Source: a virus | Lineage: Duplodnaviria > Caudoviricetes | Strand: one strand, 5' to 3' | Length of the DNA stretch: 64,000 nucleotides | IMG/VR virus record: IMGVR_UViG_3300001525_000609 | Location: 18,623-82,622 of that record | In this document: piece by piece, positions 1,640 to 38,666 of the stretch | Position numbering within the stretch: the stretch's first letter is position 1 | How the letters are laid out: each line of letters opens with the position of its first letter | Notes under the pieces: model-generated | Seen by the model: only the letters and a program-made list of their open reading frames with translations | Databases searched by the model: none | What the model was told of the DNA's origin: nothing | Translations under genes and position numbers: made by a program

Positions 1640-2229
1640 TCCAATTCCTCTCTAAAATAGTCTGATTTATTCTTGGACGGTGTTTCATCATCTTTATCAG
1701 GCACATCACGCCCCACTTCCTTACGGGTCTCACGATCTATAGGGATACGCATTATTTCGCAATCCTCTAATTCATCCCAATCTACACCTATATCGAGATC
1801 TACATTGTCTTCGTTCGATTCTTCAGGCTCTATGGTCACAAATTTCGTTCTTCCAGGGGCAGGTATCGCAACGATATCCTTCATATGCTTCACAGGCGCA
1901 TAGTCCAGAGACTCTAATTCCCTATCTTCTGCATCGACAATATTGTTCTGGGGGGAGAGATCGCCTTGATCAAAATCAAGGCGGTCCTCATCACCCTCTC
2001 TTTCAAAATACTCGGATAATTCACTGTTGGCCACAGCATCGCTTTTCAGATAGCCTGCTTCATCACGAACGGGAGTGATCATCACATCCACGTATGACCC
2101 GGGCAAGATGTTCAACGCACGGCATGGGCGCGTAACACGAATGATCAGGTCATGCTCCTGCTGTTTAGCTACCCTTGCCCTGAACTTCATCGATGCCATA
2201 ATCTGCCTTGGGGGAACGGTTGCACTCAC
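1636..2229 (-). CDS. AbrB/SpoVT-like DNA-binding domain plus acidic tail
   Basis: N-terminal KFRARVAKQQEHDLIIRVTRPCRALNILPGSYVDVMI fits the swapped-hairpin pattern. Confidence 0.55.
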   Translation of the reverse strand: MSATVPPRQIMASMKFRARVAKQQEHDLIIRVTRPCRALNILPGSYVDVMITPVRDEAGYLKSDAVANSELSEYFEREGDEDRLDFDQGDLSPQNNIVDAEDRELESLDYAPVKHMKDIVAIPAPGRTKFVTIEPEESNEDNVDLDIGVDWDELEDCEIMRIPIDRETRKEVGRDVPDKDDETPSKNKSDYFREELE

Positions 2230-2669
2230 TTCTTGTCGGTAGACCCGAGTCCGCCATTGCGATCCCGGGTCGGTACGATTTCATCTTCAAGGAACAGGAA
2301 TGGTACGAACATTCCCTGCATGTATGCCTTGCCTTTGGGTATGCATATGTCTTCATCAGCGCACAGGGAGCATTGTATCTCGTCGCGATAATCCTGGTCG
2401 ATGATGCCGACAGTATCGGCCAACCTGACTTTGTATTTGAACCCCAAGCCCGAACGGGGATACAGCATAAGAGCCCAACTTGTAATCTCGTCCCTCCAAC
2501 GGGGAGTGCAGTTGATCCTGAGCCTCTCTGTGCCGTCCAAAGATACACCTGTACCGAATGTTGTCCACTCACCTGCTTTAAGATGTATATCTGCTGGGGC
2601 AAAGAAATCATAGCACGCGCTTCCTTTAGTTGCCCTTGCAGGCATCTCGACTCCTTCCTTAGTCTTCAT
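2226..2669 (-). CDS. dut: Trimeric dUTPase
   Basis: Motifs SACYD, PRSGLG, GIIDQDYR, Q.MF and RNGGLGST. Confidence 0.95.
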   Translation of the reverse strand: MKTKEGVEMPARATKGSACYDFFAPADIHLKAGEWTTFGTGVSLDGTERLRINCTPRWRDEITSWALMLYPRSGLGFKYKVRLADTVGIIDQDYRDEIQCSLCADEDICIPKGKAYMQGMFVPFLFLEDEIVPTRDRNGGLGSTDKK

Positions 2670-3348
2670 CTGATCTCTCCTCCTGTTCTTCTCCTAAATC
2701 ATCATCCAACACAGATTGGCCTTCCTCGGCATCGATCTTGGCTTTAGCTTCCGCGATCATCTCCACAAGGTCCTGATCCATCGCGGCGACATTGTAATAT
2801 TTAGCTGGGGGCTTCTTCCTCAGAGCTTTCATAACGAGTTCATTGAGCTTACGTGCGGTTGCAGGATCGAGCCTGTTATAGGGGGTGGTGATGCACACGC
2901 CCCCTACCCCGTCACCCATTATAGCGCCATTGAACAGCGTGCCTGCGAATTGCAAAGGCTCGACATCCCATGTATACTTGTAAATGACGTCCAGCGACAC
3001 ATCTACGTCGTCATGCCATACATCTTTCTTGTACAGCTTCCCATTGACGATCTTATCTTCAAGCTGTGCCGCGATAATCTTGCTCTTGACCCCCTCATCC
3101 GTGAAGCAAGGATGCAATGCGAGCTTAATGCCCAACTCTGCATTCTTGACAGCGAACCCCGCCTCCATGAGGCCTATGACATCTCCGCCCCAATAGCCCC
3201 CTTCAGGGTATTCGCACGGGGCGCGTATAGACATGATCACTTCATCGCCATCCAGCAGGCCGAGCATCTTGCATTCGTGACCGATGCTCACCCTGTATTG
3301 ACCGTGGCCATTATCATGAATCTTTTTCACTAATCCTACTACAATCAT
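2659..3348 (-). CDS. AbrB-like domain fused to a Tad2-like paralogous domain
   Basis: N-terminal VKKIHDNGHGQYRVSIGHECKMLGLLDGDEVIMSI. Central G.DVIGLMEAG...KDVW...DVIYKYTW matches the genes at 4412 and 4629. Confidence 0.55.
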   Translation of the reverse strand: MIVVGLVKKIHDNGHGQYRVSIGHECKMLGLLDGDEVIMSIRAPCEYPEGGYWGGDVIGLMEAGFAVKNAELGIKLALHPCFTDEGVKSKIIAAQLEDKIVNGKLYKKDVWHDDVDVSLDVIYKYTWDVEPLQFAGTLFNGAIMGDGVGGVCITTPYNRLDPATARKLNELVMKALRKKPPAKYYNVAAMDQDLVEMIAEAKAKIDAEEGQSVLDDDLGEEQEERSDED

Positions 3349-4409
3349 TCATTATCCCCCTTGAAATCAAGAACACACTGTGTGGTTTCCTTCTTCCACG
3401 TCTTGTCGATGAACATCGCCCTGAATATCGCCGTCCAGCAAGGGACTGCACTGGAAGCCGCAGCTACACGATACAACATGCCGTCAGACAGCCCCGCATC
3501 TTTTACCTTCTGGAACTCCACGTCGGTGTACCCCTGGAGCCTCCAGAATTCAAGAGGTGAGAACCGTCTGATCCTCAAGTTCCCTCTGACTGCATCTTCC
3601 ACATTGTGCCTGTCGCTGACAGTGACAGAGATATGGCGGTCATAATCAGGATCATCGGGTAAAGGCTGTATCAGGAACGGCCCTACGGGGCGACGGTCTG
3701 AATAGACTGTTATGAAAGAGCTGAATTTAGTAGCATCAGTGGGCATCCATTCGGGAGTCAACACATCATGGTATCTCCTGAACTTCATCTCACGACCTGC
3801 GATCTCCTCATACGACAACCACAAGTCTTTCACTGCGTCTTCAGATTCAAGAACGTCTTTCAATATCCTGCCATCTGGACAAGGCTCAGGGAATATGAAC
3901 TCCCCGTGATGCAGCGATGCTACCATGAACCATCTTCTGCGGTTCTGAGGCACCCCATAGTCGCTGGTATTCAAGACTTCGTACGATATCTCATACCCGA
4001 GGTCCTTTATCTCTTTGATAAAGAGATTGAAGAATCTGGAATATCTGCTGCTTAAGAGAAAAGGCGTAGACTCTGCACAGATGTACTCCGGAAGATTGCC
4101 CTCGGACCTCGCACTCTCTAACAGATCTATAACGAACCATGCAAGCGATGCTTTAGTATCCCTGCCCTTGCGATTGAGAGGAGCGATCTTCAACGTCGGC
4201 CAATCGAAGAACAGAAGATCTGCACTAGGCATCGACGTCATATCTGATACGTCATCATAGCTCAAGACATCGCCATGCAATGCCTTGTATCCTTCGAGTA
4301 TCTGCGGATACGACTCGCATACGATATCATCATGTTCGACCCCTGCACGATCGAGTGCAGTCTCGGCACCGCCTATCCCTGAGAACACATCAAATAGCTT
4401 CAGCGTCAT
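3345..4409 (-). CDS. C5 DNA cytosine methyltransferase homologue, predicted catalytically inactive
   Basis: Motif I FSGIGG, motif VIII YGVPQNRRR and motif IX RRFSPLEFWRLQGY are present. Motif IV reads WPT instead of FPC, and motif VI reads EST instead of ENV. Confidence 0.85.
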   Translation of the reverse strand: MTLKLFDVFSGIGGAETALDRAGVEHDDIVCESYPQILEGYKALHGDVLSYDDVSDMTSMPSADLLFFDWPTLKIAPLNRKGRDTKASLAWFVIDLLESARSEGNLPEYICAESTPFLLSSRYSRFFNLFIKEIKDLGYEISYEVLNTSDYGVPQNRRRWFMVASLHHGEFIFPEPCPDGRILKDVLESEDAVKDLWLSYEEIAGREMKFRRYHDVLTPEWMPTDATKFSSFITVYSDRRPVGPFLIQPLPDDPDYDRHISVTVSDRHNVEDAVRGNLRIRRFSPLEFWRLQGYTDVEFQKVKDAGLSDGMLYRVAAASSAVPCWTAIFRAMFIDKTWKKETTQCVLDFKGDNE

Positions 4410-4411
4410 GT

Positions 4412-4645
4412 TCACTCCATATTGTCTGCCGCATTCCATTCGTGATTATACAACGCATTGACATCAAGGCTGATATCTGCCCATTGGGTGACATATTCCG
4501 TAGGCAGAGGTGCCGAGCCGGTATGCATGAATTGCAGGTGGTTAGAAGTTCTGTTCAGCTTGATGACGATATCATGGTCTCTTATTCTAGATGAGAGAAT
4601 ATGGCCATCTTCGAGCAGCTTCAATGCATCAGAGCCTCTGGGCAT
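4412..4645 (-). CDS. Stand-alone Tad2-like paralogous domain protein
   Basis: GSDALKLLEDGHILSS...QWADISLDVNALYNHEW aligns with the domains in 2659 and 4629. Confidence 0.5.
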   Translation of the reverse strand: MPRGSDALKLLEDGHILSSRIRDHDIVIKLNRTSNHLQFMHTGSAPLPTEYVTQWADISLDVNALYNHEWNAADNME

Positions 4646-5231
4646 CGTACACCCCCTTGTCGTTAGCCGCATCGTAGAACCAGCCCATATCATTGAGTTT
4701 GAGCATCTGGTATAGAATCGTGTCTCCGGTTATATCGCAAGTGCCTTCTTCCTTTAAAGTCTCGATCGCGTCATTCCTCAGAGCCATATATGCGCGTGTG
4801 TTGAAGTGAAGCAGATCTTCTACTTCATCGCATACCACCCAGGGCGTATTGTAGATAGAGTCGATGACATCGACCGATGTCAACGCCCAAACATCTTTGG
4901 GGATAAGATCGGTCGGGACTGTGAGGGCTACGTATATGCTCTTGCTGGTATACTTTTCATCCTGTTTGACAAGGCGCATAGGGTCCAGTGCCAAGTACAC
5001 GGGGTCAGAGCCATCATGCGGGACAGATTTCATAATGTGTCCAGACTCCAGATAGCTAAGCACAGTGGCTCCGCAGACTTCCTTGTTCTTCATCTCCTCA
5101 GAGGTGTCGAGCGATATGTAGACTGAATTATGCTCTTTTAAGCCCAATTGCTTCGCCTCTGACGACAAGACGACAACGAGCGAGTTGCCTTGTTTTTTCA
5201 GTACCTTGCGGATAGCTTCAAATCCCTTCAT
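4629..5231 (-). CDS. AbrB-like regulator fused to Tad2-like domain(s)
   Basis: IRKVLKKQGNSLVVVLSSEAKQLGLKEHNSVYISL is a clear AbrB/MazE pattern, followed by GATVLSYLESGHIMKS...KDVW...DSIYNTPW. Confidence 0.65.
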   Translation of the reverse strand: MKGFEAIRKVLKKQGNSLVVVLSSEAKQLGLKEHNSVYISLDTSEEMKNKEVCGATVLSYLESGHIMKSVPHDGSDPVYLALDPMRLVKQDEKYTSKSIYVALTVPTDLIPKDVWALTSVDVIDSIYNTPWVVCDEVEDLLHFNTRAYMALRNDAIETLKEEGTCDITGDTILYQMLKLNDMGWFYDAANDKGVYDAQRL

Positions 5232-5308
5232 AGTATTACTTTGTATTACTCATATATATTTATGAGTTTCGAAAATAAATATTGAATTGAAATACAATGT
5301 AATTGAGG

Positions 5309-5381
5309 TAGTCCTGCTCGGATTCGAACCGAGGTCGCCTGATCCAAAGTCAGGAACGATTGACCGCTACGCCACAGGACT
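5309..5381 (-). tRNA. tRNA-Gln(UUG), no encoded CCA
   Basis: AGTCCTG/CAGGACT acceptor stem with A1-U72, CCTGA-CTTTGGA-TCAGG anticodon arm, GGTTCGAATCC T-loop. Confidence 0.95.
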
Positions 5382-5800: not shown

Positions 5801-6067
5801 TCATTCCTCCAAGTCGTAATCCTCTTCCCAGGATATATTGCATGCGTCTTCGGGCATGCCCGTGTTCTCGCAGAAGCGCTTCCACGCTTTCTCCATGCGC
5901 TCCTCTCCCGTGTCCCCGGAGAGGAACAGGTCCGCTTCCTCTATGAGGTCTCTGAACTCTTTGGCGAGCCCTGCGACCTGCGTGTTGACAAGCTTGTTCT
6001 CGTCCCTTCTGAGGGCATAGAGCCAATCGCCTATCATGTATGTCCATTCCAATGTTCCACCGCTCAT
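5801..6067 (-). CDS. Conserved phage hypothetical protein
   Basis: MSGG...SGDTGEE pattern; ATGA overlap with the upstream gene. Confidence 0.6.
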   Translation of the reverse strand: MSGGTLEWTYMIGDWLYALRRDENKLVNTQVAGLAKEFRDLIEEADLFLSGDTGEERMEKAWKRFCENTGMPEDACNISWEEDYDLEE

Positions 6068-6723
6068 TCTTCCACCTTGTACCAATCGTCCGCCCATACG
6101 TCCTCAGGAGTTATGCCCGAGGATATGTACTGGTCGGTGTACACGCTCAGATAGCCGTGCTTGTCGCGCATCTCCGCGTCCGCAGGCCATGCCTTGCGCC
6201 TGAACTTCTCCGGGCTGATGCCCGATTCGATTCCTTTGAGCACCCAGCCGAACTGCCCCTCCTCGATGCAGTCGCGCACGCAGAGCCAATCGTCCGCGAC
6301 CTCGTCGGCAAGGGTCCACGAGTCGCGCAGATAGCCCCCGACGGCGGGAGACCTGCCCTTGAGCGGGCCGTCCCAGAACAGGGCATAGCCCTTCGGCCAT
6401 GCCTCGCGCCTGAAGTATATGGGCTCGGTGCCCTTGACGAGGTCCAGCGTGCTCTTGACTATCCGCAAGGTGTAGTGCGGCAGGGTCTCGGGCATCGCCA
6501 CCCAATCGTCTGCCAGCATATCGGTCTGGCTGGCGAGCCAGGGCACCCTGTCGAAGGTGCCGTCTTCATGCTCTATCTCCATGTAGATATACGGCTTGGT
6601 CATCTTGCTGAACTCTGTGGGGCGCTGGAGCTTTATCCATTGGCATTTGCCGTTCCAGCCCATGCGGTAGAAACGGGGCTCGCTCCATGTGTAGAATCCT
6701 TCCAGCACATCTGAGAAGTACAT
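6064..6723 (-). CDS. tad2: Tandem three-domain Tad2/DUF2829-family protein
   Basis: Domain 1 has RMGWNGK...PYIYM...VPWLASQTDMLADDW. Domains 2 and 3 have FRREAW...VADDW and FRRKAW...DVWADDW. Confidence 0.8.
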   Translation of the reverse strand: MYFSDVLEGFYTWSEPRFYRMGWNGKCQWIKLQRPTEFSKMTKPYIYMEIEHEDGTFDRVPWLASQTDMLADDWVAMPETLPHYTLRIVKSTLDLVKGTEPIYFRREAWPKGYALFWDGPLKGRSPAVGGYLRDSWTLADEVADDWLCVRDCIEEGQFGWVLKGIESGISPEKFRRKAWPADAEMRDKHGYLSVYTDQYISSGITPEDVWADDWYKVEE

Positions 6724-6727
6724 CCCA

Positions 6728-7126
6728 TCAGCTCCCGTACTTCGACAGTATCGCATCGATCTGCGCTTGCACGTTCGACATGTCCGACTGAATCGAGTTG
6801 GAGAGATAGGCTTCCATGATCATGCAAGCCAGCATGCAGATCAGCGTTGCTGCCACAAAGGTTCCGACAGTCCAGATACGAGAATCGACATCACGTTTCT
6901 TGACAACAGTCCATCTTCCACTAATGATGGTCTCTTCGCGTCCTGTGTATGAAATGTACAGCCATGATGAGAGCAGGGCAAGACCGAAGCCTATTACGGC
7001 ACATGTCGCCAGCCAATAGGGCAATGCCGTCAAGTCTATGTGGTCTATGTTATACTGGAATTGAGCGAGCTGTCCTCTCAGCTCGCTCAGCCGCAGCCCG
7101 TCCTCATACGTTATGTTCATGTCCAT
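6728..7126 (-). CDS. Two-TM membrane protein with coiled ends
   Basis: Two hydrophobic segments flanked by heptad-like regions. Confidence 0.6.
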   Translation of the reverse strand: MDMNITYEDGLRLSELRGQLAQFQYNIDHIDLTALPYWLATCAVIGFGLALLSSWLYISYTGREETIISGRWTVVKKRDVDSRIWTVGTFVAATLICMLACMIMEAYLSNSIQSDMSNVQAQIDAILSKYGS

Positions 7127-9877: not shown

Positions 9878-10594
9878 TCACAGGTTGCCTGCGCCCTCGT
9901 ATGCGTCGCGCAGCTCTTTGAGCGTCGGCTCCTTGCCGCACGTCTTCTTCTCCGGGCAATAGCCCAGGGCCCCGCACTGCGGGCCGAAGAGCTTGTCCAG
10001 CGTGTAGATGCCGTAGTGATGGAGCGCCATCTTGACGAGCTTGCTCATGCAGACCGCGACGCCTCCGATCTCCCCCTGCGCCCTGTTGCACAGCCTGAGC
10101 TGGCAGATATGGGCGCATTCGCGGAGGTTCATGCTGACGACCATGTTGGTGCAGCATGCGTTGGGCAGGACGGCCCGGGCATCCTCCATGGGAATGTCTT
10201 GCAGCTTCGTCATCGCCTCATACAGCTCTGAGGTCTGCGACATGTAGGTGTCGAAGACCTCCTCCATGCCCCCTTCGTCCGCCCACCTTATCGACTCGGG
10301 CGTGGCATAGGCGAAGCCGTCCATGCTCACGTAACGCTGGCTCTGCTGGCTGACCGTTATCAGGCGATGCCTGACGAGCTGGTGCGAGCATACCCTGGAG
10401 ATGCCCTCGATGCTGAAAGCGACGTGGATATGCTCCAGTATGGAGAGATGCCCGGACAGACACGCCGCTTCCAGCGCCCTTGTCGAGTCGTTCATCTCGG
10501 GCATCTCGGCGGACGTGCAGCACCTCGCCGCCAGGTCCGCCGCATAGGGTGGGCTCATGTAGAGCATCTTGACGACCATGCCTCTGCCGCCCAT
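9878..10594 (-). CDS. thyX: FAD-dependent thymidylate synthase
   Basis: GHLSILEH, QLVRHRLITVSQQSQRY, ARAVLPN, MNLRE and RLC.RAQ.EI motifs. Confidence 0.95.
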   Translation of the reverse strand: MGGRGMVVKMLYMSPPYAADLAARCCTSAEMPEMNDSTRALEAACLSGHLSILEHIHVAFSIEGISRVCSHQLVRHRLITVSQQSQRYVSMDGFAYATPESIRWADEGGMEEVFDTYMSQTSELYEAMTKLQDIPMEDARAVLPNACCTNMVVSMNLRECAHICQLRLCNRAQGEIGGVAVCMSKLVKMALHHYGIYTLDKLFGPQCGALGYCPEKKTCGKEPTLKELRDAYEGAGNL

Positions 10595-18412: not shown

Positions 18413-19018
18413 TGTCATTTTCGGCCCCTCTGTTCTCCGCCTCCGCCCGTGCTCGTGAAAATCCCCGATTTTGCCCTACATTTCTTAGACCTCTGCTGCT
18501 TGCGTCTGTCCTCGTCGCCGCGAGTGCCGAACATCACGATCCCGGGATCGGACAGGGGGCGGCGACGGCACGCGACGGCACCTGCGACGCTCTTTTCCGT
18601 CATCGCTCCCTTTCTTGTTCACATGCGTGCATGTACGCAACCGCACGCTCCTGTGCCCATACTTGCGTAAGCTCGCGCATGCGCACGTGCCCGAGCGCAG
18701 AGCGCACGAGGAACAGGCGGCTGCGTCGCAGCCGCTCCCCTGATAACGATTCCCCCAAAGGCGCACCGATCGGTGCGTCGCAGGGCGCAGGTGTGCACGC
18801 ACGCGCATGTGCGTAGCCCTGTGTTCGCTTGAAATCTCCGCAGACCCATCTCCTTTCGCGTATAATGGACTTCACGCCTTGAAAGGTGTCCAAGGTCGTC
18901 TAAACAATCTTCGTGGCTTTTATGCCCCTTTCTGTGCGTCTTATCAAAGAACCTCTCGATAAGGCCGTCCGCCCCGCCGAAGCGGGGCGTAATTGGTTTG
19001 ATGGCTCCGATCCCGGGA

Positions 19019-37328: not shown

Positions 37329-38666
37329 ATGAGCGATTCGCAGAAGCCTTTGAAAATAATTTACAAACCTGTTGACAGCCTCACGCCTTATGAGAACAAC
37401 CCTCGCCTCAATGATGATGCTGTCCCCCAGGTGGCCAAGTCCATCGAATCATTCGGATTCCTTGTGCCTATGGTGGTATCCGCAGATGGCGTGGTCGTGA
37501 CAGGACATACACGCCTCAAGGCGGCCAAGATGCTCGGCATGGATAAAGTGCCCTGTATCTGTGCAGACGATCTTACTCCTGAACAGATCAAGGCGTTCAG
37601 GCTTGCAGACAACAAAGTGTCTGAGAGGGCTGATTGGGATCAGGATCTTCTGGCGATAGAGCTGGAGGGGCTTGGGGATTTCGAGTTCGAGATGGAAGAT
37701 TTCGGATTCACGCCTATGGATTTCGGCGATTTCGAGATGTCGGGCAATGAAGACGACGAAGAGGAAGATTATGTTGACGATTCGTCGCATTCGAAGAAAC
37801 AATCGAACGATTCCGATGATGCTATTGTCGATGACGAGCCCGAAGTGCTCATATCTGCGATGCCTGGAGCTGAAGCAGTCATCCAGTCGGGCGATATCGT
37901 CGAGCTGGGCCGGCACAGGCTCAGATGCGGCGATTCTCTTTTGAAAGAATCATACGATGAGCTCATGAAAGGCGTCGTCGCAGACCTCGCGTTCACTTCA
38001 CCGCCTTATAACGCGGCTCGTTTGAGCACAGGAAGGGCGCAGGACAGTGCAAAATATCTCCATAATGACGATATATACACCAATGAGGAGTATTCCAGGT
38101 TCCTGAATGCGGTCGCGGACCGCCTTTTGGACAATTCCGAGGAGGCCTTGATCAATGTAGGGGTGCTGAAAGGTTCAAAAATCGGGATAATCTCGCTTCT
38201 AGATGCACACAGGGGCAATTTCAAAGACCTCATTTATTGGAAGAAGAACAATCCTGTGCCTGCGATGGCCAAAAACCACATATCCAGTGCCGTGGAGCTG
38301 ATAATCGCCCTTGGAAGGGACGGCTCCCGCATGTTCAGGCACGATCCCGGGATCTGGTATGGAGTGATTGAAGGGAATTGGGCTGGCAACAATCAATATT
38401 CAGCCGTCCATAGGGCCACATTTCCGCTTTATCTCCCTACAGAGGTCATAAATCATCTTTCGGACGAGGATGCGGTCATCCTCGACCCCTTCGGAGGCAC
38501 GGGAACGACCCTTATCGCTTGCGAAGATACAGGCAGGACCTGCTATATGCAGGAGATAGACCCTGCATATTGCGATCTCATTGTCAGGCGCTATATCGAG
38601 AGAGTCGGTAGCTCCGACACAGTGCATCTGTTCAGAAACGGTGAAGAAGTGGATGCCAAGTGGTGA
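37329..38666 (+). CDS. ParB-N domain plus N4/N6 DNA methyltransferase
   Basis: LTPYENNPR...SIESFGFLVP...GHTRLKAA...RLADNK; TSPPY; HRATFP; DPFGGTGTT. Confidence 0.9.
   Translation: MSDSQKPLKIIYKPVDSLTPYENNPRLNDDAVPQVAKSIESFGFLVPMVVSADGVVVTGHTRLKAAKMLGMDKVPCICADDLTPEQIKAFRLADNKVSERADWDQDLLAIELEGLGDFEFEMEDFGFTPMDFGDFEMSGNEDDEEEDYVDDSSHSKKQSNDSDDAIVDDEPEVLISAMPGAEAVIQSGDIVELGRHRLRCGDSLLKESYDELMKGVVADLAFTSPPYNAARLSTGRAQDSAKYLHNDDIYTNEEYSRFLNAVADRLLDNSEEALINVGVLKGSKIGIISLLDAHRGNFKDLIYWKKNNPVPAMAKNHISSAVELIIALGRDGSRMFRHDPGIWYGVIEGNWAGNNQYSAVHRATFPLYLPTEVINHLSDEDAVILDPFGGTGTTLIACEDTGRTCYMQEIDPAYCDLIVRRYIERVGSSDTVHLFRNGEEVDAKW

Follow-up and report, generated by a model that had tools for sequence, protein, structure and literature searches.

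A small viral clade of C5-methyltransferase-fold proteins without the catalytic cysteine, probably retained as non-catalytic binders

The gene described here lies in a 64,000-nucleotide stretch of DNA, referred to as the window, which covers positions 18,623 to 82,622 of the IMG/VR virus record IMGVR_UViG_3300001525_000609, an 82.6-kb tailed-virus record (Duplodnaviria; Caudoviricetes) of approximately 98% completeness. Within a long arm of closely spaced early or accessory genes that run leftward, the window encodes a protein of 354 amino acids, P0001, that belongs to the cytosine-5 (C5) DNA methyltransferase superfamily and in which the catalytic cysteine is replaced by threonine. The same replacement is found in the other proteins that form one clade of five with P0001, and we posit that the clade is maintained for a function other than catalysis. 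The features of the gene and its immediate neighbors are as follows (positions in the window):

3345-4409, minus strand: coding sequence, including the stop codon, of the Cys-less C5-methyltransferase-fold protein P0001, 354 amino acids (PF00145, AlphaFold2 model, superposition)
4368-4385, minus strand: motif I FSGIGG, residues 9-14, cofactor-binding loop, identical in 5/5 clade members
4194-4196, minus strand: Thr72 codon ACG replacing the catalytic Cys of motif IV (DWPT versus xFPC)
4065-4073, minus strand: motif VI Glu113-Ser114-Thr115 replacing Glu-Asn-Val, with Glu retained
3933-3947, minus strand: motif VIII QNRRR, residues 155-159, with Arg157 and Arg159 invariant
3453-3461, minus strand: motif X site Ala317-Ala318-Ser319 replacing Gly-Asn-Ser, placed by alignment
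4415-4418, minus strand: GGAG, Shine-Dalgarno-like, 5 nt upstream of the ATG (4407-4409), read directly
4412-4693, minus strand: upstream open reading frame of up to 93 amino acids without family match, whose TGA (4412-4414) ends 2 nt before the ATG of the methyltransferase-like gene
2659-3348, minus strand: downstream open reading frame of 229 amino acids without family match, whose start overlaps the stop of the methyltransferase-like gene as ATGA (3345-3348); paralogue of a 200-amino-acid open reading frame at 4629-5231

The gene had been noticed by a model reading only the letters and their translations (hereafter the original prediction) as a 354-amino-acid frame with a Shine-Dalgarno element and translational coupling, and the GGAG, the TGA just ahead of the start codon and the stop/start overlap at its end bear this out. 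A 364-amino-acid version from an upstream ATG was considered and is unlikely, because every homologue begins with MTLK or MLK. Codon usage and composition of the gene are typical for the viral genome.

P0001 matches PF00145 with an E-value of 1.8e-28 and 100.4 bits (cut-off 22) over profile positions 2-322 of 324, and phrog_116 "DNA methyltransferase" with an E-value of 1.3e-42. Against TIGR00675 (dcm) it reaches 97 bits, under the cut-off of 100.65; the active sister P0004 scores 193.4 bits. When aligned with M.HhaI, FPCQAF corresponds to DWPTLK (Cys81 to Thr72), ENV to EST with Glu113 retained, and PQKRER to PQNRRR. The M.HhaI and family alignments agree with the original prediction that Pro-Cys has become Pro-Thr and ENV has become EST, and that the GNS of motif X is altered, reading AAS at 317-319 by the family alignment. 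The motifs that had been said to remain are likewise present: FSGIGG of motif I follows the pattern FxGxG, QNRRR of motif VIII the pattern QxRxR, and motif IX is retained as LRIRRFSPLEFWRLQGY. P0001 is therefore a member of the C5-methyltransferase superfamily by evolution and fold that lacks three defining catalytic motifs and falls below the dcm cut-off, and the gene should not carry the annotation "methyltransferase".

A search of approximately 5.8 billion protein clusters returned one protein 93% identical to P0001 and one 58% identical, with the rest at 44% or less. Looking up the clusters resulted in a clade of five proteins in two lineages (P0001, P0002, P0064, P0003 and P0065), encoded on contigs between 2.4 and 82.6 kb long in assemblies of JGI, NCBI and Logan; P0001 is 93% identical to P0002 and 58% to P0003. 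All five members carry DWPT and E(S/T)(T/S) and are without the Gly-Asn of motif X. When 1.84 billion representatives were scanned exhaustively with HMMER, no other member emerged, and fused, split or fragmentary forms of the clade were searched for and not found. The 213 closest family members that were collected comprise 204 with Pro-Cys and five with Pro-Thr, the latter all belonging to this clade, the remaining four being truncated proteins, an intein junction or a CC variant. Pro-Thr, E(S/T)(T/S) and the loss of Gly-Asn occur in 0 of the other 208.

In a maximum-likelihood tree the five proteins form one clade (100 in the Shimodaira-Hasegawa-like approximate likelihood ratio test, SH-aLRT), which is nested with a support of 99 inside the canonical PC/ENV/GNS group P0004-P0007. 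The stem branch of the clade measures 1.09 substitutions per site compared with 0.1-0.2 for the sisters (5-10 times longer), and the two lineages are approximately 0.85 substitutions per site apart. From the nesting and the long stem we infer that the Cys-less form originated once from an active viral-type enzyme, in a burst, and then split. Active sisters from outside the window (P0008, P0009 and P0215) carry an intein (PF14890) exactly at the Pro-Cys of motif IV (…FPC[intein]…HN/CQD…), where the catalytic Cys would be the +1 extein residue.

Within the clade, motif IV is Pro71-Thr72 in 5/5 members, where 125/125 active aligned members have Cys. Motif VI is EST or ETS with Glu alone retained, and A317 of motif X is followed by A, F or S at 318, positions at which the family has G in 98% and N in 97%. 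Motif I is invariant, and motif VIII reads HNRKR in the P0003 lineage with both Arg residues unchanged. A relocated nucleophile was considered and rejected, as C31, C111, C177 and C324 are also found in active sisters and the clade has no specific Cys of its own.

In an L-INS-i alignment with 125 active members, 43 positions are conserved at 80% or more; the clade retains 26 of these and has lost 17, while the active sisters retain 42. The losses concentrate in the catalytic loop, motif VI, motif X and motif II. Lost in every clade member are D34Y and A37I (motif II), I54V, C72T, S76A/F, G79, R95, N114, V115, L134I, G317 and N318. In P0001, S76 is A (S76A) and R95 is D (R95D); the original prediction had overlooked these changes as well as D34Y and the shortening of the catalytic loop. 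Retained are motif I (12 consecutive identical residues), Glu32, Asp53, Asp64, Pro71, Glu113, Arg157, Arg159 and motif IX, and also blocks specific to the subfamily, located behind motif VIII and at the C-terminus. Around Thr72, DWPT.KI is identical in both lineages.

As aligned, the core losses (the Cys, Asn-Val of motif VI, Gly-Asn of motif X, Asp34 and residues of the catalytic loop) are common to lineages across 42% sequence divergence. Formerly critical positions that vary between the lineages are 76, 114/115 (ST versus TS) and 318 (A/F/S), and these look relaxed after the loss of catalysis rather than co-adapted. This does not favor the original description of the changes as coordinated, since the lineages differ in EST versus ETS and in AA/AF versus AS. 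Of the Pro-Thr and EST states whose conservation among homologues had been proposed as a check, Pro-Thr is found in 5/5 members and EST gives way to ETS according to lineage.

Neutral evolution was simulated by substituting the window's own coding sequence down to 58% amino-acid identity in 400 runs, with indels ignored. The frame stayed open in 2/400 runs, and the mean number of stops was 7. Replacements were evaluated by their mean BLOSUM62 score against 300 neutral simulations conditioned on no stops. P0001 versus P0002 scores +0.23 compared with a neutral -0.52 ± 0.34 (reached by 5/300 simulations), and P0001 versus P0003 scores -0.37 compared with -0.65 ± 0.13 (reached by 6/300). The open frame, the conservative replacements and the native codon usage, judged by these two simulation proxies, argue for purifying selection on a folded protein. 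On the sequence evidence the shared replacements are neither assembly or sequencing error nor recent decay, because five proteins in two lineages share the same losses. The original prediction of a maintained pseudoenzyme rather than a decaying one is supported by these results, and close relatives do not all keep PC/ENV, as the 93%- and 58%-identical proteins share Pro-Thr. The particular functions that it suggested (site-occluding anti-restriction protein, base-flipping DNA binder or SAM sink) are conjectural. DNA of the four relatives was found neither in peptide-pattern scans of viral and genome collections nor among the metagenome matches listed.

An AlphaFold2 model of P0001 built with a 130-sequence alignment reached a predicted local distance difference test score (pLDDT) of 84.9 and a predicted template modeling score of 0.87. 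The pLDDT drops to about 66-71 in the catalytic loop and to 52-79 across residues 205-280. Foldseek gave template modeling (TM) scores of 0.66-0.70 to Dnmt2 and HhaI, and VIA-align gave Z-scores of 31.3 to M.MpeI-DNA (4dkj) and 29.5 to HhaI ternary complexes over approximately 290 residues, with a root-mean-square deviation of 2.5-2.9 Å. In the predicted structure the whole two-domain C5-methyltransferase fold is retained, with the Rossmann catalytic domain and the small domain that forms the cleft. In M.HhaI, the equivalents of F9, G11 and G13 (motif I), Glu32 and Asp53 hold the adenosine part of S-adenosylmethionine (AdoMet), and the equivalents of Glu113, Arg157, Arg159 and Pro71 grip the flipped cytosine. 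By analogy with M.HhaI, the pocket for the flipped cytosine would survive, as would the adenosine-binding half of the cofactor pocket; its methionine end, the nucleophile and some of the DNA-contacting loop would not.

The only relative in GenBank is Caudoviricetes sp. vir335 (BK063680) with the host Methanomassiliicoccales, and the virus is linked to this group of gut methanogens. Vir335 shares only a 164-nt stretch of the dUTPase at 72% identity, and no methyltransferase adjoins the vir335 dUTPase. Further genes of interest in the window are as follows:

2226-2669, minus strand: dUTPase (phrog_135), same arm
5307-5381, minus strand: tRNA-Gln, anticodon UUG, same arm, approximately 0.9 kb upstream of the methyltransferase-like gene
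6064-6756, same arm: Tad2-like domain protein, 1.7 kb upstream of the methyltransferase-like gene
9878-10594, minus strand: ThyX (PF02511, E 3.5e-47), same arm
37329-38666, plus strand: ParB-like N-terminal domain fused to an N6_N4 methyltransferase (PF01555, E 8.9e-26), 445 amino acids, with SPPY at residue 224 and FGGTG at 388

ThyX and the dUTPase together constitute the virus's own supply of thymidylate. The open reading frames at 2659-3348 and 4629-5231 (both minus strand), which with the 93-amino-acid frame bracket the gene, are 29% identical over 154 residues (E 1e-7) and have similar N-termini. They have no Pfam or PHROG match even at E-values of up to 10, leads from Atlas are at chance level, and a Tad2-like identity could not be confirmed, since no Tad2 or other domain is detectable in them. 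Used as scan queries, the 229- and 200-amino-acid proteins and ThyX returned no close viral relatives. Among solved structures the best sequence match of P0001 is the tRNA methyltransferase Dnmt2, on account of which the target may be RNA; a tRNA-Gln lies in the same arm.

The methyltransferase-like gene is the only PF00145 gene in the approximately 98% complete genome, so that no rescue copy is available, and the ParB-fused N4/N6 enzyme is probably the working DNA methyltransferase of the virus. Several palindromes are depleted over the whole genome (observed versus expected: CTCGAG 0 versus 16.8, GATC 428 versus 619, CCGG 143 versus 260, CTAG 56 versus 109) and AGCT is over-represented (375 versus 288 expected). 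The avoidance fits a virus that is incompletely protected by its own methylation but is uninformative about the Cys-less gene in particular.

We posit, with a probability of roughly 65%, that P0001 descends from an orphan DNA (cytosine-5) methyltransferase of viruses, is itself non-catalytic, is kept by purifying selection in a small clade of viruses associated with Methanomassiliicoccales, and acts by binding instead of modification. The catalytic Cys is the essential nucleophile of C5-methyltransferases, and since no covalent C6 adduct that activates C5 can form without it, P0001 would make no 5-methylcytosine. Expressed from the leftward arm that also carries the dUTPase, ThyX and the Tad2-like anti-defense gene, it would still dock on nucleic acid, perhaps while holding an adenosyl ligand. 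Its effect would come about through binding, by occluding or marking sites on the viral DNA or by jamming host DNA. Docking on nucleic acid is favored because the cleft and the base-pocket residues are kept, motif I is the most constrained, and Cys-substituted enzymes bind DNA. HhaI C81G, the subject of work by Mi and Roberts in 1993, is said to bind DNA tightly. M.HaeIII C71S, which is among our structure matches, was solved bound to DNA (PDB 3ubt); its loss of the Cys is engineered, while that of P0001 is natural. More tentatively, P0001 might be a counter-defense or host-takeover protein on a C5-methyltransferase scaffold. It could clamp DNA sites and leave them unmodified, shielding the DNA of the virus from a host nuclease or poisoning host replication like engineered Cys-less methyltransferases, or it could soak up an AdoMet-derived or adenosine-containing immune signal in the adenosine pocket that it has kept.

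Several observations weigh against action by binding DNA. The catalytic loop, which in HhaI contacts DNA, has 5-7 residues fewer in the clade than in the family at large, and its sequence is poorly conserved among the clade members. The clade is also more acidic than most active relatives, with isoelectric points of 4.8-5.6 and net charges of -8 to -20. Sequence-specific DNA binding is not assured, because the recognition-domain block RVY..SPTVTT..GGG of the sisters is absent in P0001 and the region is modeled at a pLDDT of 52-79. The changes in motif X and at Asp34 may additionally weaken AdoMet binding, and with only two independent lineages the conservation of single residues is weak evidence. 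The variable region has 81 residues, 70-115 fewer than that of its nearest active relatives. We tempered the notion that the recognition domain was deleted, as 81 residues are approximately the size of that of M.HhaI, many active members have short ones, and the model aligns over most of HhaI.

Known pseudo-methyltransferases mostly act as partners of active paralogues, and P0001 might, like DNMT3L, METTL14 or Trm6, bind a protein and stimulate, retarget or block an active methyltransferase or a host restriction or defense complex, with binding of DNA and cofactor secondary or lost. The acidic protein with its degenerate DNA-contacting loop would suit such a role, as would the non-catalytic blocks VASLHHGEFxFPEPCxDxRxLKDVLE and SAVPCWTAIFxAMFIDKTW, which are nearly unchanged between the clade and its sisters. 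The viral genome, however, holds no active C5-methyltransferase paralogue, its other DNA methyltransferase being the unrelated ParB-fused enzyme, and no partner is identifiable, both translationally coupled neighbors being without family match. Because it also leaves the retention of Glu113, Arg157 and Arg159 unexplained, we consider a partner role rather unlikely. Still less probable is that the Rossmann pocket sequesters AdoMet or an adenosine-containing immune signal as counter-defense beside the Tad2-like gene. Motif I is identical at 12/12 residues across lineages that are 58% identical, Glu32 and Asp53, whose HhaI counterparts contact the ribose and adenine, do not vary, and the residues of motif X at the methionine end have changed, all of which a small-molecule binder could account for. 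The Tad2-like protein in the same arm points this way only by association, the immediate neighbors having no detectable Tad2 or other domain. Furthermore, stoichiometric sequestration of the abundant AdoMet would be inefficient, and a sponge would have no need of the small domain, motif IX or the base-pocket residues. To our knowledge, no sponge with a methyltransferase fold has been described.

Catalysis of another kind is improbable to a greater degree. An enzyme with altered chemistry could methylate an N or O nucleophile of a modified base or of RNA, for which no Cys is needed, or methylate C5 very weakly, and the retention of motif I, Glu32, Asp53, Pro71, Glu113, Arg157 and Arg159, the identity of DWPT.KI in both lineages, and a long stem followed by conservation as in neofunctionalization would agree with it. 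Yet the clade is without the Gly-Asn that motif X contributes to the AdoMet pocket, with 318 varying among A, F and S, and the ST versus TS variation at 114/115 looks relaxed rather than re-optimized. The clade has gained no new Cys, Thr is implausible as a Michael nucleophile, and beyond the dUTPase and ThyX the genome has no gene set for hypermodified bases. Among all alternatives, only a decaying pseudogene still open by chance, or an assembly or sequencing artefact, is strongly disfavored, and we give it the lowest standing. The rarity of the clade, five proteins among billions, would speak for decay, and a precedent exists in M.CviAIV (A530R) of chlorovirus PBCV-1, a full-length, intact m5C-methyltransferase open reading frame that is inactive and regarded as a pseudogene (PMC7248222). 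The P0001 clade, however, has lost numerous catalytic positions, and the losses recur in both of its diverged lineages, in five proteins that were assembled independently and stem from several sources. Decay also sits poorly with the rarity of open frames among the neutral runs, with the conservative bias of the replacements, with the Cys to Thr change, which takes at least two base changes (TGY to ACG), and with the Shine-Dalgarno element, translational coupling and native codon usage.

Compared with its active relatives, the orphan methyltransferases of phrog_116/PF00145, P0001 has the same fold and is 41-44% identical to P0004-P0007 and 33% to the methyltransferase of vir335. It shares with them the blocks LHHGxFxFPxPCPDGRxLKDVLE and AVPCxTAIFxxMFxDxTW. 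The vir335 enzyme and the sisters P0004-P0007 carry PC, ENV and GNS, whereas P0001 is without all three; the vir335 enzyme, from a comparable early gene arm in a related virus, is canonical. With regard to M.HhaI, equivalents of F18, E40, D60, P80, E119, R163 and R165 are present in P0001, whereas those of N120, V121, S85, G303 and N304 and recognizable recognition-loop motifs are not. DNMT3L is a mammalian inactive paralogue of DNMT3 in which cofactor motifs are also lost and which partners DNMT3A/B. Like P0001, it has a C5-methyltransferase fold from which catalytic residues have disappeared, and selection maintains it in a non-catalytic role. The two differ in that motif I is strictly kept in P0001 and no active C5 paralogue exists in the viral genome, and their origins are independent. 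No description of a conserved natural Cys-less C5-methyltransferase clade in prokaryotes or their viruses was found in the literature, the coverage of which was incomplete, so that novelty is only weakly indicated. The clade, though real and under selection, is tiny.

The usual way in which viruses counter restriction is an orphan methyltransferase, and any PF00145 match is named a "DNA methyltransferase" by annotation pipelines. The Cys-less clade is a natural counter-example, in which the nucleophile and approximately 40% of the conserved positions are gone and the protein is still folded and conserved. Predictions of methylomes from gene content should check for the Cys of motif IV. The clade implies that an archaeal virus puts the scaffold to non-enzymatic use, among hosts whose conflict with viruses is almost unstudied. 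Were its target found, the clade could add a new class of binding-only anti-defense or regulatory proteins, and it would also provide a natural base-flipping or AdoMet-pocket binder.

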